This document shows, piece by piece, positions 12,018 to 42,699 of a stretch of DNA of 64,000 nucleotides. Position 1 is the stretch's first letter. Each line of letters starts with the position of its first letter. The notes below the pieces were generated by a model. The model was not told the DNA's origin and did no database searches. It worked only from the letters and a program-made list of their open reading frames with translations. Made by a program: the position numbers and the translations under genes. Source of the stretch: Candidatus Gottesmanbacteria bacterium (GTDB lineage: Bacteria > Patescibacteriota > Microgenomatia > UBA10105 > UBA927); assembly GCA_016214885.1 (NCBI GenBank), contig JACRMP010000025.1:44025-108024 (forward strand), written 5' to 3'.

Positions 12018-12154
12018 TCTTTATTGCGGTCGACGGGGAATCAGTGTGATTTCTTCTCGAAACTATATAGCCCTTTAACAATCGAATGGTGATAGGAATT
12101 TTTATTGATGTAAGCAGATTTTTGGTCAAACAAAAGTCCTTATGTCAATTTTTT

Positions 12155-13906
<1,752 letters not shown>

Positions 13907-14996: not shown

Positions 14997-17357
14997 ATGA
15001 ACCCATACCTCAGGGATATACTGATCCGTTTTTTTATCCCGTTTTGTGTCATCGCCATGATCACCGGACTGCTTTTCCGGCCGTTTATTATCCGCGGACA
15101 CATACCGCTTCCTTCGAATTACATGATGGCGTGGTATGAGCCTTGGAAGTCTGAAACGATGGTGAATGGCGCACCCACTATCATTCACAAGCCGGTTATC
15201 GACGATGCGTTTAGGCATTTGTATCCGCTGCGGGAGCTTGCCGCCGCGGTTATAAAAGACGGCCAGTGGCCGTTATGGAATCCCTATAATGCGGCAGGAA
15301 CCCCACTTTTGGGTATTATGCATCCCGGGTACTTAACGCCGTTTGGTATATTTTTTCTTTTTATGCCCTCTCCCGTAGCATGGGGTTGGTATGTTTTGCT
15401 GCAGCTTATTACTTTGGGGGCAGCAGTGTACTGGTACGGAATGACCATGAGATTGTCACCCCGTGCATCGCTTGTTAGTGCAGTAATACTCATGTTGTCT
15501 GGTTTTTCCGTGGTGCGCTTGGAATATGGGGAGTTCCTGTATGTCCTGGCCGGGTTGCCGGTATTGCTTGGATTAATCGAACTCAGGAAGGATAACAATG
15601 CACACAGGAGTATTGTTGTGGTGCCCATGATAGTCGTCATAATGATGCTTTCCGGGCAGCCGCACATGATTATCTATACACTTTCCGTTTTTGCGTTTTA
15701 TACACTTACGCGTCTGCCGCTTGCCGGAACATTCAGGGTTGCGGGACTCGCATTGCTGGGCGTCGGACTATCGGCAATACAGTTAATTCCCAGTGTCGAA
15801 TTGTATACGCTTTCGACCATTACCCAGGAATCAAGCTCATTCATTTTTGATCGGTTTTTATTGCCTTTTGCTCATCTTATTACCATTATTATTCCGAATT
15901 TCTTCGGCAACCAGGCTACGTACAATTATTTCGGCCCGCATGACTATACAGAGACTACGGCCTATGTCGGAACCATCCCGGTTTTTCTTGCATTGGTTGC
16001 GGTCATGAAGCAGTGGAAGGATGTAAGGGTAAGATTTTTTGTCGTCCTTGCGGTTTTATCTATACTCACCACCATTGATTGGTTCGGTGCCCGGTTGTTT
16101 TTTATGCTTCCTATACCGGTGTTGTCGGCAGATGTTCCGAGCCGGATTTTTGTACTGACCACCTTCGCTGTTTCTATCCTTGCAGGCTTCGGATTTTCCG
16201 AATGGGAAGGTGCGTCAGCCGCATACCGGAAGAAAATGCTTACCATAATGGGTATAGTGCTGGCCGCTATTGCCGTTGTGACAGTAGTCGTGTATCAGAT
16301 GAAGGTTCCCTGTCCGTCAACTGAAGTGCCCCAGTGCAGATTGATAAGCCTCCGGACTACCGCGGTTGAACTATCGGTATTTGCAGCGTTCATTTTTGCA
16401 GGATTGGTCTTTGCGAAAACCCGTGGATTAGTCCGTATGGCTGCAGGATGCATGCCTATTATGCTTATTGCATGTATCGGGCTTTATAACGGACAGAAGT
16501 TTTTACCGTTTTCTCCGCCGGAAATGGTATCACCGAAAATTCCTATGATCGCAGAGCTCCAAAAAGAAACAGGAATTGACCGGTATGCAGGTATAGGTGA
16601 CGCTTATATCCGCACCAATTTAATGACAGGCTTTAGAGTGCATAGTACTGAATATTTTGATCCCCTAAACGTCAAACGGTATGCGGAGCTGGTTTCGTAC
16701 GTAAACCATGCCGATATCACAAAAGGGGTATCAAGGAGCGACATATTGGTTAACTCCGATGCAACGGTAAGCGCAGAGTTAGCTAACCGTCGCAACCGGT
16801 TTTGGGATATGACCGGAACGGCGGTAATACTAACAAAAAATGATGCTTCGCTGCCGGCATTTGGTAACGCGGTGTGGGAGGACAAAATTTGGCGTATAAG
16901 CAGGCGGATGACAGCTTTTCCCAGGGCATATGTCGCAGAAAAGGTGCTGGTGGAGCCGGACAGTGCAACACAATTATCCAAGATATTCGATCCTGAATTG
17001 GATATAACTCACACGGCTTTTGTAGAGGATCGCATAGAAGGATTGCAGGGTGTTGGTACACCATCAGGGAAAGCGGCAGTGCTTAGTTATTCCCCCAATA
17101 GGGTGTCAATTAGCGCCGAGGCCTCTACGACATCAATGCTCGTGTTATCAGACACGTATTATCCCGGCTGGAAGGCAACCGTTGACGGCATTGAGCGGAA
17201 AATTTACCGGACTAACTACGCCTTCCGCGGCGTTGTAATTCCGGAAGGTAAGCATACCGTAGAATTCCGCTATGAGCCGGAGTCATTGCGTATCGGTCTT
17301 TGGGTGAGCGCCTTATCACTTATCGTATGGGGTATCTATATTTACCGGAGGAAGTAA
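14997..17357 (+). CDS. YfhO-family polytopic membrane glycosyltransferase (GT-C)
   Basis: ~14 TM helices. The C-terminal domain carries the YfhO hallmark LSDTYYPGWKATVDG...YRTNYAFRGVVIPEGKHTVEFRYEP. Confidence 0.75.
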   Translation: MNPYLRDILIRFFIPFCVIAMITGLLFRPFIIRGHIPLPSNYMMAWYEPWKSETMVNGAPTIIHKPVIDDAFRHLYPLRELAAAVIKDGQWPLWNPYNAAGTPLLGIMHPGYLTPFGIFFLFMPSPVAWGWYVLLQLITLGAAVYWYGMTMRLSPRASLVSAVILMLSGFSVVRLEYGEFLYVLAGLPVLLGLIELRKDNNAHRSIVVVPMIVVIMMLSGQPHMIIYTLSVFAFYTLTRLPLAGTFRVAGLALLGVGLSAIQLIPSVELYTLSTITQESSSFIFDRFLLPFAHLITIIIPNFFGNQATYNYFGPHDYTETTAYVGTIPVFLALVAVMKQWKDVRVRFFVVLAVLSILTTIDWFGARLFFMLPIPVLSADVPSRIFVLTTFAVSILAGFGFSEWEGASAAYRKKMLTIMGIVLAAIAVVTVVVYQMKVPCPSTEVPQCRLISLRTTAVELSVFAAFIFAGLVFAKTRGLVRMAAGCMPIMLIACIGLYNGQKFLPFSPPEMVSPKIPMIAELQKETGIDRYAGIGDAYIRTNLMTGFRVHSTEYFDPLNVKRYAELVSYVNHADITKGVSRSDILVNSDATVSAELANRRNRFWDMTGTAVILTKNDASLPAFGNAVWEDKIWRISRRMTAFPRAYVAEKVLVEPDSATQLSKIFDPELDITHTAFVEDRIEGLQGVGTPSGKAAVLSYSPNRVSISAEASTTSMLVLSDTYYPGWKATVDGIERKIYRTNYAFRGVVIPEGKHTVEFRYEPESLRIGLWVSALSLIVWGIYIYRRK

Positions 17358-17365
17358 AATACGTG

Positions 17366-17437
17366 AGGCGCGTGCCGGAATTGAACCGGCGCATGGGAGT
17401 TTTGCAGACTCCTGCGTTACCACTTCGCCAACGCGCC
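17366..17437 (-). tRNA. tRNA-Cys (GCA)
   Basis: Cloverleaf read from the reverse complement: GGCGCGT acceptor stem, anticodon loop CUGCAAA, T-arm GCCGG-TTCAATT-CCGGC. No encoded CCA. Confidence 0.75.
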
Positions 17438-17458: not shown

Positions 17459-19818
17459 TCAAGAATGACGCTTAGGGGACAACCACACAAGATAACCGAG
17501 AGCTAAAATTCCGGCAATCGTACCCGCTAACCCGACTTTCCATGACCAAGGTTCGTATCTAAATTGAATCGTATGTGTTCCCTGTGGTGCAATAACAGCC
17601 CTAAATGCATAGTTTGCCCGGTATAGTTTGGTATGTTTACCGTCCACATAGGCTTTCCAACCCGGATAATAAGTGTCAGACAAGTACAACATCATGGGGC
17701 CATTTGTCTCCGTTTTTGCTGTTACGGTATTTGCGGTATACGCGGTAATCACCGCAGAACCGGTTGATTCGCTGCGGAGTGATTCAGCGGGTCGTTCTTC
17801 CAGAAACAGCGTCTTTCTGATGTCAGTGCCGGTAGCATAGAGGGATGTAAGGATCTTATTTCCGTCCGGTTCGATCCGTATATCGGTAAACAGATGCACC
17901 CGGGGCAATGCACCCTCATGTTCGTGGACGGCATAGGTGCCGTCATCCCATATACGCGGAAGATTAGAAGGGTCTGCAGCAACAGTCTGGCGGTTGCGGT
18001 CCGGCGTAAGCTTGCGGGCGATATATTTTACCCCCAATAGTTCAAGCGTCTTTTTCCGGTATGGGTCAGCAAAGATGTCGTCGAGATGATCGGTTGACTG
18101 GATAAGAGCGTTTGCGCGGTCGGGGGTGAGCGATGTGCCCCGTGAGTTTGCATACGCCAGAAATTCGGCATACCGCCGTATGATGATGGAGTCATATCCC
18201 TCAGGGGAATACACGCCATACTGCGATGCAAAGTTTTTTTCTATGTAGCCGTTGTCGTAGGTCCAGAACCGGTCATAGCTATGCTTTTTAAGCTCCGTAA
18301 AGACCGGCGAGGCAGGATATACAAACCGCCGTTCGGAAAAATACATATATTTTTTGGCGAACATAAATATATTGCCAAGCAGTATGAGGGTGAGAACCAC
18401 AAAACCAGCCGTTTTTACAGATTTCTTAAGATAGGTAATCCACAGGATGGTGAGCGCGGCTATCATGCTGGCTGCTGGTATTGCCAGATTTCTTAGGGTT
18501 ATAACGTAAGTGGTGTTTTTGTCATCAATGTACCTGCTGATAACGGGTACTGCAGCTGCAGCGATAAAGCTGAGAACTGCGATAATTGTCATCCACATGA
18601 GTACTTTTTTCGGGAGTGTTTTTCCGTATTGTTCTGCCGCAAATGCGGTAAGCACTGATCCCGTGAACGTAACCAGCATCATTATCCGTGACGGCGTCAT
18701 GGTGGACAGTAATGGAAGCTTCAGATAATACAGGATAAGCCAGGTGGTGGGGATAGAGAGCGTAAGCGATAGAAAAATCAAAAATGTAATCCGGAAAAAT
18801 TTTCCATGTATGGCCGTCGACTTCCATTGCAGCAGCTGGGAAATGATAAAAAGAAACGGCACCACCCCAAGAAACATAAGTCGCTCATGGTAGAATCCAC
18901 CACCAAAATAGTTATACGTTGCGGGATTGCCGAAATAATCCGGGGCAAATACCGTCACCAGCCGGGTGAGCGGCAGCAGATACGCGTCAAAAATGTATTT
19001 GACATCGGTCGATACCCGTGTTGAGAGTGTATATGCTTCCATATTCGGGATAAGGTGGATAGCGCTTAAAAGCAGTGACAAGGGTATAGCGCTCCCCAAG
19101 GAAGCGAGCGTTTTTATGCTGTTTGGGGAATCTAAGCTCCGGTAGAGTATCCAAATTCCGGTAAACAGATACACATAAAATGTCATCTGAAAAGCTCCCG
19201 ACATTACAGAAAGCGCCAGAGAAGCAGCAAGAAGTGCGACCCAAACGCCGCTTGGTTTTTTCATGTACCGCTCAACAGCGGTAAGCCCGACCGGCAGGAA
19301 TAGTGATGAATAACCGAACAGATAGCTTTCCTGCCACCATGTCATGAAGAACCCGGAAAACGCAAATGAAATTGATCCAACAAACTTAGCCGGGCGGGAA
19401 AACCGGAGCGAGCCAAGGAACACATACATAGCCAGAGCGGTAAGTATTGGCTGGAGTAGCATGATGATGCTCCACGCATCGATAGGAGGGATTACGGAAA
19501 ATAGCCACGACAAGGGGTGGAATATCGCTGATTGGAAAAATTATGGGGGTTCCATAGGGGTATTTCGCCGCGCTTTAGCGAGTCTACCGCAACCGTTTTT
19601 ACGGGAAAGTAGATCCGTACGTTATCAAATCCCATCGCTTTGTTAGGCGGACCGTTAGGGTATTCCGGGACAGGATATGAACGCCATGGTTCGTAGTAGG
19701 AGACGAGTAGGTTTGCGGGAAACGGGACTAAACTTTTAACAAAATAGTCACGGAAAAGAAATAAAGAAAAGAAAATAATAATGAGAATGGGTACAAACTG
19801 TTTCCAAGGCGCGCGCAT
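17459..19818 (-). pseudogene. Second YfhO-family paralog, disrupted by a frameshift at an A5/T5 homopolymer (~19526-19530)
   Basis: The N-terminal fragment (19818..19492, SYYEPW...LWNPHN) and the main body (19513..17459) both align to the 14997 paralog. Reading frames switch between NPHN and AIFHP, which straddle the T5 run. The C-terminus is YYPGWKAYVDG...FRYEP. Confidence 0.6.
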
Positions 19819-32973: not shown

Positions 32974-34506
32974 ATGAACGACTGGCCTATTTTGTATAAG
33001 CAGGTGCTGCATGTCAAAGACCCCAAAAATCCGGTAGGAGTTTCTATCATGTGGACGGAGCGGCAAGTGGTCGCCGACATGCTCAAGACCGAAAACTACT
33101 GCGCCATCGGGAACCTCTATTCATCTGCCGGTATATCGGCGATGATCCGGAATGTCTACGCCAACCCGCATATCAGAAAGATTGTCTTGTGGGGAGCTGA
33201 TCTTTCCCGTAGCGGTACGGCGCTCATGGCACTCATGGCAAATGGGGTGGACGAGAACTTTTTTATCAAGGGCGACGAAAAAGGCGGCCAGATAGAAAAG
33301 GAAATAGGACACGAAGCCATAGAGCTCTTCAGGAAATCGGTGGAGGTAATTAACCTTCGGGGCAAATCACCTGACGAACTCCGCCGGGTGGTTTCGGAAC
33401 TCAGTAAAGAACCTCCCAAGCCATTTACCGAACCCAAAACATTCCCGACGAGCAGGCCGAAGCCCTTTACGTATCCTTCGGAGCAGATTGGGTTTAGGAT
33501 TCACGGGCAAACAACGGCACAGACCTGGCTTAAAATCCTCCAGAATATTATGCGCTACGGGCGGAACAAAACGACCCGCTATACGCAGGAAAACGAACTT
33601 AAGGAACTGCTAAATGTAATGGCCGTTGTGTACAACGAAGATCCGGAGAAACCGTACCTTCCGTCATTTTTTCCGTTTTCAGAAAAAGATCTGGCTACCT
33701 ATTATCCGCAGGTATTATCAGCTAAACAGATTCCCGGTATCGCATACACCTATGGTCAGCGTCTCCGCGATCATGACGGGGTAGACCAGATTCAGAACAT
33801 TATTGACCTCATTAAGACCCGTCCGTTTTCCAAAAAAATGGTGGCGTTTACCGCAAAGATAAAAGAAGACTGGTCGGTGGTGAACAAAGGTGATACCCCG
33901 TGTTTAACCCAGATCCTCTGCAGTATCCAGGACGGCAAATTGTTTATGACTACCCATTTCCGTAGCCAGGACATGGTGCATGGCTGGCCGCGGAATGTAT
34001 TCAGTCTCAGGAAACTCCAGAAGCTTATTTGCGATGAATCAGGGGTTCCCATGGGGTCGTTTGTTATGATCACCCACAGCGCGCATATTTACAGCGACGA
34101 TTATGAGCTGGTCGAAAAAATCCTCAAAGAAAATTATGAAAAGGAGTTAGGATACACCAGCCGCCAGATGTTCGAGGATGACCCGCGCGGCAATGTAACG
34201 GTGGAAATAGAGGAGGTCGGTAAAAAGCCGGTAGGCAGACCGACCAAATATGCCGAGAAGCCGACGGATAAGGAATACGAAATCGTTGTCAAAATATACG
34301 CGCCCAACGGAGGGCTGCTGCTTAAGGAATGGCGGGGCAAGACGGCTATGGAAATATATATCGATATGGTAAATATCGGTGAGTATTTGGTGCTCCCAAG
34401 CCATGCCATTTATATAGGTACCGAAATGCAGCGGGCGGAGTTTTATATTAAGCTGGGTATGCCGGAAAAATATAACCAGGATCCGGCGGCAAACAAAGCG
34501 TTATAA
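32974..34506 (+). CDS. Thymidylate-synthase-family enzyme (ThyA fold) with a ~170-aa N-terminal and a ~130-aa C-terminal extension
   Basis: The core, ~aa 175-375, has YTYGQRL, DQIQNIIDLIKTRPFSKKMVAFTAK, DTPCLTQILCSIQDGKLFMTTHFRSQDMVHGWPRNVFSL and ITHSAHIYSDD. These correspond to the ThyA catalytic Cys (PCH), the RSxD and LGxP-like blocks, and HIY. Confidence 0.7.
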   Translation: MNDWPILYKQVLHVKDPKNPVGVSIMWTERQVVADMLKTENYCAIGNLYSSAGISAMIRNVYANPHIRKIVLWGADLSRSGTALMALMANGVDENFFIKGDEKGGQIEKEIGHEAIELFRKSVEVINLRGKSPDELRRVVSELSKEPPKPFTEPKTFPTSRPKPFTYPSEQIGFRIHGQTTAQTWLKILQNIMRYGRNKTTRYTQENELKELLNVMAVVYNEDPEKPYLPSFFPFSEKDLATYYPQVLSAKQIPGIAYTYGQRLRDHDGVDQIQNIIDLIKTRPFSKKMVAFTAKIKEDWSVVNKGDTPCLTQILCSIQDGKLFMTTHFRSQDMVHGWPRNVFSLRKLQKLICDESGVPMGSFVMITHSAHIYSDDYELVEKILKENYEKELGYTSRQMFEDDPRGNVTVEIEEVGKKPVGRPTKYAEKPTDKEYEIVVKIYAPNGGLLLKEWRGKTAMEIYIDMVNIGEYLVLPSHAIYIGTEMQRAEFYIKLGMPEKYNQDPAANKAL

Positions 34507-35478: not shown

Positions 35479-35775
35479 ATGAAAAAATCATCAGTATTGG
35501 TCATTGTGATTCCGCTCGTTATCACGGCAATTATCGTCGGCAGTGTTTTTGTGGTGCGGTATTTTTCGCCGGTGCCGGAAGAGAGCCAGGCCGCCCCTAA
35601 TCCTGTGCCATCGGTGTTTCCGGAGCTCGTGGTTCCCACGGGCAAACCGGAGGTGGGCTTTGACGGGCTGCAGCCGGTTACCCCTGTTTCTGATCTGCGC
35701 CAGGAATTCGAGGGTACCACCGATGCGACTGGTTCAGGTTTAGAAGCGCTGGAGTCAGATGCTTCAGGGCTTTAA
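35479..35775 (+). CDS. Small membrane-anchored hypothetical protein
   Basis: MKKSSVLVIVIPLVITAIIVGSVFVV TM helix, then a Pro-rich tail. Confidence 0.35.
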   Translation: MKKSSVLVIVIPLVITAIIVGSVFVVRYFSPVPEESQAAPNPVPSVFPELVVPTGKPEVGFDGLQPVTPVSDLRQEFEGTTDATGSGLEALESDASGL

Positions 35776-37008
35776 TGCAGTAATCGCCGTATACTGATCC
35801 GCAATTTTTTGGGCGATTGTGTCCCAATCAAATTCTTTTAGCGCGCTCGTGGCGTCAGCCTTCCGGAGATCCGCATTGAGTACATGATGTATTTCTTCGG
35901 CTAACGCCAGGGGATTGTTCGCACTCACGATATGCCCCTGGGGAAGTTCTTTGAGTATGGGGGAAATACCGGTAACGTCCGTTGCTATCACCGGGGTACC
36001 ACACGCGGTCGCTTCCAGCGCTACCATACCGAATGATTCATAGTGGCTCGGCATGACGAGCACATCAGCCGCATTGTAATAGTGCGGAAGCTCTTCCTGC
36101 GGTTGGGGAGGTACAAATTTTACCGTGGCGGTTAACCCCAGGTCACGGCGCAGGCTTTCAAGCTTTTTAAGCTCCCGCGGCCATTGTGACTTGTCCTGTT
36201 CTATATTGCCGCCCACGATCCAGAGACAGATTTGGTCGCGGTAGTCAGGATGCTGTTTTATCAGATTTTTGAGCGCGACAAGCAGCACATCAAATCCTTT
36301 GACAGGATCAATTCTGCCTACGGCAAGCACAATATGGTGCGTGTTATCCGCTCCGATATGCCGTTTGGCTTCTGCCATGGGGATAGGGCGGAAAAGTTTG
36401 GTATCAACGCCGGGAGGTATAGTGACAATTTTTTGTTCCGGACAATCATAGAGCGTGGATAAATAATCGCGCCCCATTGCACTTGACGTGAAAAAAAGAT
36501 CCAGCTCAGCAGCCAGTGCCCGTTCGGTGGGGATGCGAGTTGCCGGATCATCCGTATCTTTTGACCGGGCCACCAATTGCTTCATGAGCCCCAGGGTATG
36601 AAACGTCATGGCAGTAGGAATATGACGGGGAACGGACTTATTAATCTCACGGGCAACCATACCCGACAGATAATAATGGGCATGTATGGTGTCGTAGATG
36701 ATGTGTTCACTTTGCATAAAGTCCAGAAGATTTTGGGTAAATTCCGGGAGTGCCGACAAAATATCCTCTTTAGATAACGGCGTGTGGGCGCCATTCGGGA
36801 TATGTATGACACGGAAGTTATCGTTTACACGGACAATCCTTGGATTGACGTCATCCTGTACGCGGGTGAATGCATCTACCTGCCAGCCTATCCGGGACAG
36901 CGCCTTGGAAAGTTCATAGACATAGACGTTTATTCCGCCGCGCTCTTTTCCTTCGCTGGAGGCGAGGGGACACTCATGGACAGAAATCATTGCAACACGT
37001 TTATTCAC
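35764..37008 (-). CDS. GT4 glycosyltransferase, MshA/BshA-like (UDP-GlcNAc-dependent)
   Basis: N-terminus VAMISVHECPLASSEGKERGGINVYV resembles MshA (SVHTSPL...GG.NVYV). The C-terminal EX7E motif is PSHYESFGMVALEATACGTPVIATD. Confidence 0.8.
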   Translation of the reverse strand: MNKRVAMISVHECPLASSEGKERGGINVYVYELSKALSRIGWQVDAFTRVQDDVNPRIVRVNDNFRVIHIPNGAHTPLSKEDILSALPEFTQNLLDFMQSEHIIYDTIHAHYYLSGMVAREINKSVPRHIPTAMTFHTLGLMKQLVARSKDTDDPATRIPTERALAAELDLFFTSSAMGRDYLSTLYDCPEQKIVTIPPGVDTKLFRPIPMAEAKRHIGADNTHHIVLAVGRIDPVKGFDVLLVALKNLIKQHPDYRDQICLWIVGGNIEQDKSQWPRELKKLESLRRDLGLTATVKFVPPQPQEELPHYYNAADVLVMPSHYESFGMVALEATACGTPVIATDVTGISPILKELPQGHIVSANNPLALAEEIHHVLNADLRKADATSALKEFDWDTIAQKIADQYTAITALKP

Positions 37009-37046: not shown

Positions 37047-37904
37047 TTAAGCAGTCCGCACCGGGCGGGGGGAAATTGCATTGCCAACGTCACTTGTCAT
37101 GATTGCCGTCACTTTGTCTCCTACGGTTCTCAAGAACGATGATGGGTTGTCGGAAGATACGGGTCCATTGAGTGCTTCGTTCATTGACTCTTTGTATTGG
37201 GGATCAAAATCGATAAAGATAATTTTTTTAGCTTTCAGGATGGTAGAAATTCCCTGGGTGATGGCATGCACCGGGGATGTTTGCTTGCGCACCACCTGGT
37301 CACGGTGTACGGTTTCCGGCGAGAGTGCCGTAATGTGGGTGGGGAGCTCCTTGGGGGTGCCTTTTTCATTAAATCCTATGTGTCCGCCGCATCCGATGGG
37401 GTGGAGCACCAGATCGATGTCCTGGGCGGCCAGTAAGGCTTCGTATCCTGCAGCGACTGCTTCACCGTTTGTGCCCGGATCAGCGGGTATTTCGTGGATA
37501 TTAGCCGGGTTTATCCCAAGCGGAGTCCACACATTTTCCCGTAGATACTTGCGGAAGCTGTCGGGGTGATCAGCAGAAATAGGGAAGTACTCATCCAGAT
37601 GAAACGCCTTAACATCGGCAAATGATACCTGCCGCTCAGCCGCTAATTTAGCCAGCTTTTCATAAACTGACTTTGCCTGGTTGCCGGTAGGGAAAGAAAT
37701 TGCTGCGTCAGGCTTCTGTTTGACGACTTCCAGAATCATTTCAGCCGTGAGTCTGGCTGCTTCGTCATGGGTAGGGAGTACGTAGACGTGGGATAGCTCC
37801 GGGTTCTTGAGTTCAAGTATCCGGTTTTCCCAGAATCCAAGGGGCACCCCTCCCGTGCTGGGAAGCGTATGGATTTCGACGCGTTCGTAGGATATAACAC
37901 TCAT
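37047..37904 (-). CDS. nagB: Glucosamine-6-phosphate deaminase
   Basis: FPTGNQ, VSFADVKAFHLDEYFPI...HPDSF and GGHIGFNE blocks matching NagB. The ORF upstream of 37904 is likely non-coding. Confidence 0.8.
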   Translation of the reverse strand: MSVISYERVEIHTLPSTGGVPLGFWENRILELKNPELSHVYVLPTHDEAARLTAEMILEVVKQKPDAAISFPTGNQAKSVYEKLAKLAAERQVSFADVKAFHLDEYFPISADHPDSFRKYLRENVWTPLGINPANIHEIPADPGTNGEAVAAGYEALLAAQDIDLVLHPIGCGGHIGFNEKGTPKELPTHITALSPETVHRDQVVRKQTSPVHAITQGISTILKAKKIIFIDFDPQYKESMNEALNGPVSSDNPSSFLRTVGDKVTAIMTSDVGNAISPRPVRTA

Positions 37905-38033
37905 AGGTCTTGCAAAGACCCATAGTATACGCCTCGCAAGGCAAAATAGCAAGCTATGCCCCAAGCCGCACCAGTAATCATCCCACTAGCGGGTGGGTGT
38001 CGATAGAAGCCTTGGCTTCTCCTCGAAACGTCC

Positions 38034-39842: not shown

Positions 39843-39889
39843 AGTTAGCCCTCCTTAAGAGCAATAGTCCTAAATTAGGATTATTGAAA

Positions 39890-40120
39890 ATATTTTATGA
39901 AGATATAGAGAAGAGATACGGACTCCGTTGTTTGTCGTTCTATGCCCCGCCTTACGGAGAGGTTTCTCGCAAACATTGCGGTGGGGAGTGCCACCGAGGG
40001 GTTTCCGCAGATACTCCCCGCCAATCAATTGATACTTCAATCGAAGGCGAGGGTCCGATTTCTCCGCCAGCTGGCGGAGACCCCTTCCTCGTATCCCCGC
40101 AGTCGGCGGGGCCACACGCT
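39890..40120 (-). ncRNA. Candidate glmS ribozyme/riboswitch in the glmS 5' leader
   Basis: The minus-strand RNA contains AGCGUG..CCCCGC-CGACU-GCGGGG..GAUACGAGGAAGGGG..CGGCGG..CCCCUC..CUCCGUAAGGCGGGG. These resemble the glmS core elements (AGCGCC, GACGAGG, GGAGG/CCUCC pairing, CGGCGG, CCGUAAGG). Long insertions relative to the Bacillus type make the call tentative. Confidence 0.4.
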
Positions 40121-40281
40121 TACCATCTTTCCAGTTGCCGTACTCTGTAAATGTGCCTTTCTGTATCCCTATGCTACCCCCGGGTTATGTAGTTGTCAAA
40201 TTCCAGAGAGGCACAGCGAAGGGCTATATTTCTTAGTGTCTTGTCCTATAGATTTTTATGTGGTAGAAACACAGATAAGCA

Positions 40282-40926
40282 ATGAAAGAGCGCAACGAAT
40301 ACATCGCCGTAATGGGTACGATGGGCAGCGGAAAAACTACTGCCGCCAATCTGCTGGCCAAGGAACTCCGGTTCACCCTCGTTGAAGAAAACGTCAAAGA
40401 AAACGCATTTTTACCCCGGTTTTATAAGGATATGAGCCGTTGGGCGTTTCATTCCCAGGTATTTTTCCTGATGGAAAAAATCCGCCAGATGACCGAAACC
40501 AAAAACATCCTGGGAAAATCATCCGTCATTCAGGATACGCCCATTACCCAGGATGTGTATTCATATGCCAAAGCGCAGCATGAACTGGGGCACATGGATG
40601 ATGCCGAGTGGGCGCTGTACCAGAAAATTTATCATGAGTTTACTCCTCATTTTCCCCAGCCCGATCTTATTGTGTTTCTCGATACATCAATTCCCGCTAT
40701 AGAATCCCGTATTGCTGCACGGGGGAGGGAGTTTGAACAGGAGATCCCTACCGATTACCTTACCCTGCTTGATAAGCTAAACCGCAAATGGCTCGAGCAG
40801 AATACCACGATTCCGGTGGTGAGGATCGCCACGGATACGCTCGATATCACAAGGAGCCGCGATGCGCAGGAGCAATTTGCTTCAATGGTGAGGAGCGCGC
40901 TCACCAAGCGTGTTAGTGTACACTAA
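40282..40926 (+). CDS. Deoxynucleoside kinase (dCK/dGK family)
   Basis: P-loop VMGTMGSGKTT, an ERS-like region, and size and family pattern (FLPRFY, FHSQVFFL). Confidence 0.75.
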   Translation: MKERNEYIAVMGTMGSGKTTAANLLAKELRFTLVEENVKENAFLPRFYKDMSRWAFHSQVFFLMEKIRQMTETKNILGKSSVIQDTPITQDVYSYAKAQHELGHMDDAEWALYQKIYHEFTPHFPQPDLIVFLDTSIPAIESRIAARGREFEQEIPTDYLTLLDKLNRKWLEQNTTIPVVRIATDTLDITRSRDAQEQFASMVRSALTKRVSVH

Positions 40927-41589: not shown

Positions 41590-42699
41590 ATGCGGATTTT
41601 CTTTACAGCGGCTACCACTAATAACGGGGATTTCCTCACCCAGGAAAAAGCTATTGTTGCGGTGATCAAAAAATTGGGTCACACCCTCACCTCGGGAGAA
41701 CAGATACTTGATCATAAAAAACTGGCAAACGATGCGGCACATACACCGGAGGAAATTTTTTATCGGGAAAAACAGGCGATGGAAGATGCAGACTGCGTGA
41801 TAGCAGAAGTGACCAAGCCGAGCAGCGGGGTGGGAGGCGAGTTGGTGTATGCGCTTACCCATCACAAACCGGTGCTTGCTCTTTTTTACAAAGACGCTCC
41901 CAACGAATTATCTACCATGATTTCGGGCAACCCGTCGGATCATTTGTATCTGGAGCACTATGACGAAGACAGTTTACCTATCCTCATTAAGCATTTTCTG
42001 GAACAGGTGGAAGTCGAAAAAAACCGTCGGGGCAAACTTATCGTGATCGATGGCGGTGATGGTTCGGGCAAAACCACCCAGTCGGCATTGCTTACCCAAT
42101 ATCTGGAGCGTCAGGGGGTCGGCGTTAAGTCCTTCGACTTTCCCCGTTACTACAGTTCATTTCATGGCAAGATGGCCGGCAGGTTTTTGGCAGGCGAGTT
42201 TGGCGCGAATGTTTCCCCGTATCTGGCGTCATTGGCGTACGCATTAGACAGGGCAAGCGCGAAAGAAGAAATGGATTTATGGTTGTCTCACGGCGGAGTT
42301 ATCGTGTGCAACCGCTATGCGACCAGCAATATGGCACATCAGGGGGCAAGGCTCCCCAAAGAATCGCGGAAAGAGTTTTTGGAATGGATCGATGAACTGG
42401 AATACAAAGTGCATAAAATTCCGCGGGAGGATATTGTCATTTACCTCCATGTGCCATGGCGGGTGGGTATGGAATTAACCAAAAAGAAAGGCGACCGTGC
42501 GTATTTGGGCAGCAACAAAGATATTCTGGAAGCAAACGAACACCACCGCGAAGAATCAGAGGCTATGTACCTCTCGCTTGCCAAGTCGCGCCGCAACTGG
42601 GTGACGGTCGAGTGCGTTGAAGACAGTGCAATACTTCCCATGGAAACTATCCTCGAGCGGGTGTTGGCGGCGCGCCGGGCTAAAAAGCTAATCACATGA
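41590..42699 (+). CDS. tmk: Fusion protein: an N-terminal nucleoside 2-deoxyribosyltransferase/DNPH1-like domain plus C-terminal thymidylate kinase
   Basis: N-terminus MRIFFTAATT...VTKPSSGVGGELVYAL (NDT-family catalytic Glu context). C-terminus LIVIDGGDGSGKTTQ...RY (Tmk P-loop and DRY-like region). Confidence 0.75.
   Translation: MRIFFTAATTNNGDFLTQEKAIVAVIKKLGHTLTSGEQILDHKKLANDAAHTPEEIFYREKQAMEDADCVIAEVTKPSSGVGGELVYALTHHKPVLALFYKDAPNELSTMISGNPSDHLYLEHYDEDSLPILIKHFLEQVEVEKNRRGKLIVIDGGDGSGKTTQSALLTQYLERQGVGVKSFDFPRYYSSFHGKMAGRFLAGEFGANVSPYLASLAYALDRASAKEEMDLWLSHGGVIVCNRYATSNMAHQGARLPKESRKEFLEWIDELEYKVHKIPREDIVIYLHVPWRVGMELTKKKGDRAYLGSNKDILEANEHHREESEAMYLSLAKSRRNWVTVECVEDSAILPMETILERVLAARRAKKLIT

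Follow-up and report, generated by a model that had tools for sequence, protein, structure and literature searches.

The leader of the glmS gene on the minus strand of a 64,000-nt stretch of genomic DNA (hereafter the window) very probably encodes a glmS ribozyme, which by homology would act as a feedback switch for glucosamine-6-phosphate (GlcN6P). The element is a divergent member of a known family. Together with a flanking helix that we call P0, it occupies positions 39912-40146. The standard Rfam scan already detects it, just barely, and P0 is the part most worth following up.

The glmS ribozyme is usually described from Gram-positive bacteria, and the present copy places it in the candidate phyla radiation (CPR, or Patescibacteria). 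Since these organisms have tiny genomes and few known regulators, the element would provide an example of a metabolite-sensing RNA that controls the synthesis of a cell-envelope precursor. In the literature searched, we found no paper that mentions both the glmS ribozyme and CPR, Patescibacteria or Microgenomates. In what follows, related loci are designated by L numbers, and all features lie on the minus strand unless indicated otherwise.

Identification of the ribozyme

An intergenic gap of 439 nt (39843-40281) separates glmS from a divergent deoxynucleoside kinase gene on the plus strand, and this gap was scanned against all Rfam families. The glmS ribozyme family, RF00234, matches positions 39919-40131 with 40.5 bits, a margin of 3.5 bits over the gathering score of 37. 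This match extends over model positions 1-167, which is the full length of the model, with E-values of 5e-06 for the 64-kb window as a whole and 5.5e-08 for a 701-nt region. Its 3' end lies 76 nt 5' of the glmS AUG, on the same strand. We also built a covariance model of our own (R1) from the most compact copy, that of L003, using a hand-drawn structure; R1 scores the window element at 82 bits (E = 4e-20) over positions 39909-40148.

An earlier note, made from the sequence alone, had proposed a candidate glmS ribozyme upstream of glmS and had named an Infernal search with RF00234 as the way to check it. The full-length match on the correct strand, over the gathering score and just before the start codon, bears the proposal out, as do the compensatory changes in related leaders described below. 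The interval that it gave, 39890-40120, was roughly right in comparison with the extents of the Rfam match and of the P0-enclosed element. Five of the six motifs that it listed are found on the RNA strand at the places given, namely AGCGUG (40120-40115), the CCCCGC/GCGGGG hairpin, GAUACGAGGAAGGGG (40095-40081), CCCCUC and CUCCGUAAGG (39959-39950). The remaining motif, CGGCGG, is absent from the RNA strand, where only GGCGG is present, within inserted hairpins; the actual partner strand in helix P2.2 is CUGCGG (40010-40005), the functional equivalent of the consensus GGCGG. The large insertions that the note mentioned do exist: relative to the Rfam model, the P2 loop contains an insertion of 67 nt that folds as two hairpins.

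Structure of the predicted ribozyme

The pairing scheme and nucleotide numbering used here follow published descriptions of the glmS ribozyme (PMC11602151, PMC7125110). The predicted scissile bond, spanned by the motif AGCGUG, lies between A40120 (position -1) and G40119 (G1) and is placed by homology, through alignment to the RF00234 sequence aAaA|GCGCC. It is followed by the P1 hairpin (40095-40111; -12.1 kcal/mol), which consists of CCCCGC at 40111-40106, the loop CGACU and GCGGGG at 40100-40095, and which covaries in relatives. In the RF00234 alignment, the catalytic core strand is AUACGAGGA (40086-40094), and G40087 is the counterpart of the catalytic guanine, that is, G42 in Bacillus subtilis and G40 in Thermoanaerobacter tengcongensis.

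Helix P2 pairs positions 40085-40081 with CCCCU at 40001-39997 and covaries; its AGGGG strand is the one that the earlier note had paired with CCCCUC (40001-39996). By the RF00234 alignment, P2.1 would be formed by the CGA of ACGAGGA and UCG at 40058-40056, with both strands conserved in the clade, and comparison of relatives delimits its clade-conserved 3' strand as AAUCGGAC (40053-40060). The 3' strand of P2.2 is AUCUGCGG (40005-40012), which is invariant in the clade; its C-UGCG would pair with G7 and with C2, G3, U4 and G5 (40118-40113), leaving U6 bulged. The complementarity required for P2.1 and P2.2 is thus present, with two wobbles among the P2.2 pairs, and because the strands are invariant in the clade, covariation is uncountable there. 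Note that the canonical C5-G53 pair is G5.U53 in the window; the 5-53 pair is poorly conserved in nature (PMC7125110).

In the 3' half, the P3 hairpin (39979-39996) is supported by covariation, and its loop, ACUCC, forms the P3.1 pseudoknot with GGAGU at 39922-39926, which is likewise supported by covariation. Between them, the P4/P4.1 domain (39930-39974) contains a purine-rich internal loop and, in the P4.1 stem, a GUAA tetraloop of the GNRA type; all 15 of its pairs covary. Thus A-1, G1, C2, G3, ACGAGGA, the UCG of P2.1, GCGG, the GNRA loop L4 and the purine-rich internal loop IL4 are all present. Moreover, the catalytic and ligand-pocket nucleotides (A-1, G1, ACGAGGA and GCGG) are invariant in the clade, the exception being a U in place of the conserved G directly 5' of ACGAGGA, and ACGAGG is invariant among all CPR copies.

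Besides this U, the core departs from the consensus after the cleavage site, where GCGUG instead of GCGCC produces the U4.G and G5.U wobbles in P2.2. The other major departure consists of insertions of about 60 nt in the P2.1/P2.2 loop region. Hairpin A (CUCCGCC AGCU GGCGGAG; 40062-40079; -15.5 kcal/mol) follows the 5' strand of P2 and precedes the 3' strand of P2.1; most relatives have a hairpin of unrelated sequence at this site, and L003, L007, L013 and L016 have none. Hairpin B (CCCUCGCC...GGCGGGG; 40016-40053; -21.7 kcal/mol) replaces the short P2.1-P2.2 loop of canonical ribozymes, and the relatives have hairpins of differing sequence there. In both cases, the position of the insertion is fixed and its sequence is wholly different among relatives. 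Such an expanded core, with hairpins beside P2.1 and P2.2 and with wobbles in P2.2, offers a natural test of how much change the active site tolerates.

In an equivalent scan, Clostridia and Bacillus copies score 80-142 bits with RF00234, compared with 40-68 bits for the CPR clade; by this measure, the CPR copies are a divergent subclass near the detection limit of the model. Given the core deviations and the insertions, the presumed activity and ligand dependence of the window element rest on homology.

Conservation among related genomes

RF00234 matches the same position before glmS in 11 of the 15 nearest GlmS loci, with 40.6-67.7 bits, and R1 finds the element in 21 of 80 GlmS loci, so that at least 21 related genomes share the arrangement. 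Among the loci found by R1 are L001 and L004, whose very long P1 insertions keep them under the Rfam threshold. The curated model therefore barely detects the clade and routine annotation would under-count it, and a clade-specific model recovers such copies. In more distant Microgenomates, Peregrinibacteria and others, the ACGAGG core is absent upstream of glmS.

The P1 insertions are about 40-100 nt long and consist of AT-rich repeated words (UUAACAGUUAAC...); they are found at L001:3650-3750, L004:3590-3700 and L006:3660-3760, and L006, with its insertion, still scores 40.6 bits, just over the threshold. R1 mis-aligns the 5' half of the copies with a long P1 (L001, L004, L005, L006, L008 and L011). 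R1 was also tried on canonical ribozymes and was dropped as too clade-specific: it missed L125, which scores 79.8 bits with Rfam.

In the model-fitted alignment, the nested helices have 93.9% of their cells paired, a share that drops to 42-50% once partners are slid. Of the 43 pairs, 41 have changed on both sides, and P1, P2, P3, P4 and P4.1 are all supported by covariation. For the P3.1 pseudoknot, which is outside the structure of the model, 88% of the cells are paired, against 28-50% when slid, and four of the five pairs show compensatory changes. In addition, RNAalifold, applied to a sequence-only MAFFT alignment with no structural input, recovers P0, the base of P1, P2, P3 and P4. Taken together, the related loci, the covariation, P3.1 and the RNAalifold result argue against a chance match and against a decayed relic.

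The idea of a relic nevertheless deserves consideration, since the Rfam score is marginal, the core is off consensus and the insertions are large: the leader might have kept its structure and lost self-cleavage, or have been repurposed for another ligand. However, the same deviations are fixed in at least 16 genomes, even though GlmS identity to the window protein is only 57-84% among them, the helices are maintained by compensatory changes, and the catalytic strand ACGAGGA is invariant. This combination points to purifying selection on a complete ribozyme fold and makes a relic very unlikely. Still less credible, to the point of being negligible, is that the region is protein-coding. The sequence does contain open reading frames, two on the plus strand (39884-40150, 88 aa; 39942-40385, 147 aa) and one on the minus strand (39870-40115, 81 aa), but none of the three matches any Pfam family, even with the limit relaxed to E = 1, in agreement with the earlier note, which had regarded the two antisense frames as not of note. 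Furthermore, the 147-aa frame overlaps the deoxynucleoside kinase gene, and what the relatives conserve is base pairing and no reading frame, their hairpins keeping fixed positions despite unrelated sequences. A complete, divergent glmS ribozyme is therefore the reading that we adopt.

The P0 helix and other features of the leader

The earlier note had described the leader as 440 nt long. This agrees with the intergenic length of 439 nt; the transcribed leader, however, would be shorter, at about 320 nt from a predicted promoter. This promoter is of the sigma-70 type (40171-40199), with TTGACA at 40199-40194, a 17-nt spacer and TAGCAT at 40176-40171. It has 10 of 12 matches in a consensus scan, a score that one site in the stretch is expected to reach by chance; in most related leaders, TTGACA...TAGCAT falls at the corresponding alignment position. 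Transcription is expected to start near 40164.

In a sequence-only alignment of the leaders, a Shine-Dalgarno (SD)-like motif, AGAAAGG in the window (40156-40162) and AAGGAG(G) in relatives, appears about 10-20 nt 3' of the predicted transcription start and is not followed by a start codon. It has the same position in L001-L033, and the 3' end of the 16S rRNA in the window has the canonical anti-SD sequence CCUCCUUUC. Speculatively, the motif might be a 5' stabiliser against RNase J that is discarded upon cleavage. We also considered it as an anti-anti-SD for the SD of glmS and rejected this role for the CPR clade, as the pairing is inconsistent across relatives and the SD accessibility in cofolding is little changed.

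P0 is a 9-bp leader-trailer helix that encloses the whole ribozyme and lies outside the Rfam model. Its 5' strand, AGAGUACGG (40138-40146), pairs with the 3' strand, CCGUAUCUCU (39912-39921), which comes directly after the P3.1 tail; the helix was identified by alignment, by a duplex test and by RNAalifold. Because R1 mis-aligns the copies with a long P1, P0 was tested on a separate, sequence-only alignment. Among the 16 leaders in this alignment, 94.3% of the P0 cells are paired, against 36-62% when slid, and four pairs show compensatory changes, for example one in which the window, L001, L004 and L006 have A-U instead of G-C. The helix is also kept with other sequences, namely GCGAA/UUCGC in L013 and GAAGCAG/CUGCUUC in L015. 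As to its role, we can only speculate that P0 serves as a clamp on the fold.

Between P0 and the gene, there is a hairpin (39863-39885; -7.2 kcal/mol) just 5' of the glmS ribosome-binding site, and hairpins of differing sequence are found at the same place in L001-L009. A promoter and terminator scan scored this hairpin as terminator-like on the plus strand. The SD of glmS itself is AAGGAGG (39850-39856). No SD can be recognised in front of glmS in L010 (3975-4003), whose AUG is only about 10 nt after the P0 3' strand, or in L007 (3852-4000), whose AUG comes after a spacer of about 150 nt in which GUGUCAC-like words are repeated.

P0 in canonical glmS leaders

For comparison, 13 canonical glmS leaders were collected, in which the ribozymes were located with Rfam; note that this sample is small and partly related. 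The Clostridia-type leaders include those of C. pasteurianum, C. akagii, Ethanoligenens and Caproiciproducens. A search of metagenomes with the pattern AGCGCCNGNAC...GACGAGGA returned 120 loci, of which four are real ribozymes (L125, L138, L161 and L190); the remaining loci were discarded as chance matches in GC-rich DNA. In viral contigs, a stricter pattern gave three loci, two of them usable, and a looser pattern gave chance matches only.

All nine leaders with a short spacer of 33-42 nt to the AUG (L321, L322, L203, L324, L325, L326, L190, L138 and L125) have a P0 of 7-10 bp directly after the ribozyme. At least five of these helices are unrelated in sequence: AAGGCUUUU/AAAAGCCUU, CCGAGGUUUC/GGAAACCUUGG, GGCUUUCA/UGAAAGCC, AGGGGACU/AGUCUCCU and GAAAAGA/UCUUUUC. 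In the four long-spacer leaders (L161, L323, L327 and L328), which include the Bacillus cereus type, no P0 is evident. Shuffle tests of the P0 energy in single sequences were given up because they have little power, since a leader rich in purines will pair well with any trailer rich in pyrimidines; instead, we compared cognate with non-cognate leader-trailer duplexes. Over 11 representatives, the energy is -15.05 kcal/mol for cognate and -10.02 kcal/mol for non-cognate duplexes (permutation p < 5e-5), and the same comparison over five canonical families gives an exact p of 0.017.

In all nine short-spacer leaders of the Clostridia type, the 3' strand of P0 overlaps a stretch able to pair with the SD of glmS, and in six of them this anti-SD complementarity beats shuffles at p < 0.1. 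This suggests that in Clostridia-type leaders cleavage frees an anti-SD and thereby shuts off translation.

If the same applied to the window, cleavage would control translation in addition to, or instead of, mRNA decay: in the uncleaved RNA, P0 would hold the 3' flank; cleavage would turn P0 into a duplex of two molecules, from which the 5' fragment could depart; and the freed 3' strand would fold onto the ribosome-binding site and block initiation. The anti-SD overlap in the Clostridia-type leaders and the cognate specificity of leader-trailer pairing speak for this, as does the fall in predicted SD accessibility with a free P0 3' strand in the CPR relatives L002, L009, L012, L016 and L018. 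In the window, however, the predicted SD accessibility is unchanged (0.19 vs 0.18) and the P0 3' strand is no more complementary to the ribosome-binding site than shuffles are (p = 0.73), and we rejected this strand as an anti-RBS on these two grounds. The complementarity is also non-significant in most CPR relatives, and the supporting tests have limits of their own, the single-sequence energy tests having low power and the canonical sample being small and partly related. We thus regard translational control at the window locus as unlikely and retain cleavage followed by mRNA decay as the preferred reading.

A broader scheme, which we put forward with considerable doubt, is that glmS ribozymes, that of the window among them, are enclosed by P0 so that cleavage turns an intramolecular clamp into a dissociable duplex of two molecules; in Clostridia, where the released 3' strand is an anti-SD, the ribozyme would gain a translational expression platform beside RNase J decay, and in CPR, it would lead to the loss of P0 together with an SD-like stabiliser. 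If confirmed, P0 would add a structural and possibly a regulatory element to a well-studied ribozyme. No description of a P0-like helix was found in the literature searched; McCown 2011 was outside that search, and an earlier description is possible.

Gene context and host

The earlier note had described a glmS-nagB-GT4 operon. Its glmS part is firm: the 602-aa product of 38034-39842 matches TIGR01135, glutamine--fructose-6-phosphate transaminase, with 605 bits against a cut-off of 418. The other two genes are assigned at family level only, with scores under the curated cut-offs. One (37047-37964, 305 aa) is NagB-like and belongs to the glucosamine-6-phosphate deaminase / 6-phosphogluconolactonase superfamily, with a best match of 155 bits against a cut-off of 326. 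The other (35764-37008, 414 aa) is an MshA-like GT4 glycosyltransferase, with 307 bits against a cut-off of 462 for TIGR03449, a Glycos_transf_1 match and synteny. The deoxynucleoside kinase gene (40282-40926, plus strand) is divergent from glmS. The nearest relatives keep the operon of glmS, nagB-like and GT4 genes as well as the divergent pair of deoxynucleoside kinase and HAD genes. The nagB-like gene is kept 3' of glmS in L001, L003-L006, L008 and L010, and is absent from the operon in L002, L007 and L009.

The NagB-like protein, which scores far below the NagB cut-offs, is extended at its N-terminus by about 60 residues, a feature conserved in L001. Co-repression of a GlcN6P-consuming enzyme with GlmS would be an odd arrangement, and this protein may not be a catabolic deaminase.

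The closest relatives of the window GlmS, ranging from 84% down to about 45% identity, are found in metagenome-assembled genomes of CPR/Patescibacteria, chiefly Candidatus Gottesmanbacteria; judged by these matches, the host is a Gottesmanbacteria-like CPR bacterium. Insertions in rRNA genes are a known trait of CPR, and such a host would explain the group I intron (12608-12854; RF00028, 70.3 bits, gathering score 50) in the 16S rRNA gene of the window (12150-13904, plus strand; 1755 nt). Without the intron, which has no ORF-sized insert, the gene is about 1508 nt long.

Several other genes of the window are worth recording. Two unusual fusion proteins are encoded on the plus strand in a nucleotide-salvage neighbourhood, with genes for deoxynucleoside kinase, HAD hydrolase and SHMT nearby: one of 510 aa (32974-34506) combines MtrA-like, thymidylate-synthase and pterin-binding DUF4346 parts, and the other, of 369 aa (41590-42699), combines a nucleoside 2-deoxyribosyltransferase with a thymidylate kinase. 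In addition, the genes for two large membrane proteins of the YfhO family (14997-17357, plus strand; 17459-19513, minus strand) point towards each other from either side of a tRNA gene (17366-17437).

Proposed mechanism

In the most likely mode of action, GlcN6P would bring about cleavage between A40120 and G40119, and RNase J would then degrade the mRNA; we infer the ligand, the cleavage site and the dependence on RNase J by analogy with canonical glmS ribozymes. Transcription would start near 40164, and the RNA would fold into a double-pseudoknot core of P1, P2, P2.1 and P2.2, braced by P3/P3.1 and P4/P4.1, with the two clade-specific hairpins in the P2 loop and with P0 (40146-40138 with 39921-39912) closing the domain. 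When GlcN6P accumulates, it would bind the core and induce cleavage, which in this family yields a 2',3'-cyclic phosphate and a 5'-OH. The downstream mRNA would thus begin with a 5'-OH, the 5' triphosphate end having been removed along with the SD-like element and the 5' strand of P0. RNase J would then degrade this RNA in the 5' to 3' direction, and less GlmS, NagB-like protein and GT4 would be made, which amounts to negative feedback. In this scheme, it is not obviously logical that a GlcN6P-consuming NagB should be under the same GlcN6P-repressed leader as GlmS. The gene for RNase J, rnj, is kept in at least 90% of CPR genomes (PMC12641178); among the large ORFs of the 64-kb window, there is no RNase J gene.

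Comparison with known systems

Like the canonical glmS ribozymes of RF00234 (Bacillus subtilis, B. anthracis and Thermoanaerobacter tengcongensis), the window element is located in the 5' UTR of glmS and has the A|G context at the cleavage site, the helices P1, P2, P3, P3.1, P4 and P4.1, the ACGAGGA strand, the GNRA loop L4 and the purine-rich IL4; P2.1 and P2.2 are predicted as well. It would be expected, by analogy, to share also the GlcN6P cofactor and RNase J-dependent decay. It differs from them in its lower score, in GCGUG after the cleavage site, in the U before ACGAGGA, in the two hairpin insertions and in its CPR host. Furthermore, the window has P0, whereas none is evident in the Bacillus cereus-type leader examined.

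Clostridia-type leaders resemble that of the window in two ways: P0 comes directly behind the P3.1 tail, and the 5' leader contains an SD-like stretch rich in purines. In Clostridia, however, this stretch doubles as the 5' strand of P0, whereas in the CPR clade the SD-like motif is about 9 nt upstream of P0; similarly, the P0 3' strand overlaps an anti-SD in Clostridia, whereas in the CPR clade it is not a convincing one.

STAB-SD sequences are 5' stabilisers in Gram-positive mRNAs, as in the cryIIIA leader of B. thuringiensis. [quoted passage not shown] Finally, the GlmY/GlmZ-RapZ system of Enterobacteria likewise exerts GlcN6P feedback on glmS at the RNA level, but it uses trans-acting small RNAs and a protein adaptor, has no ribozyme and is not homologous to the element described here.
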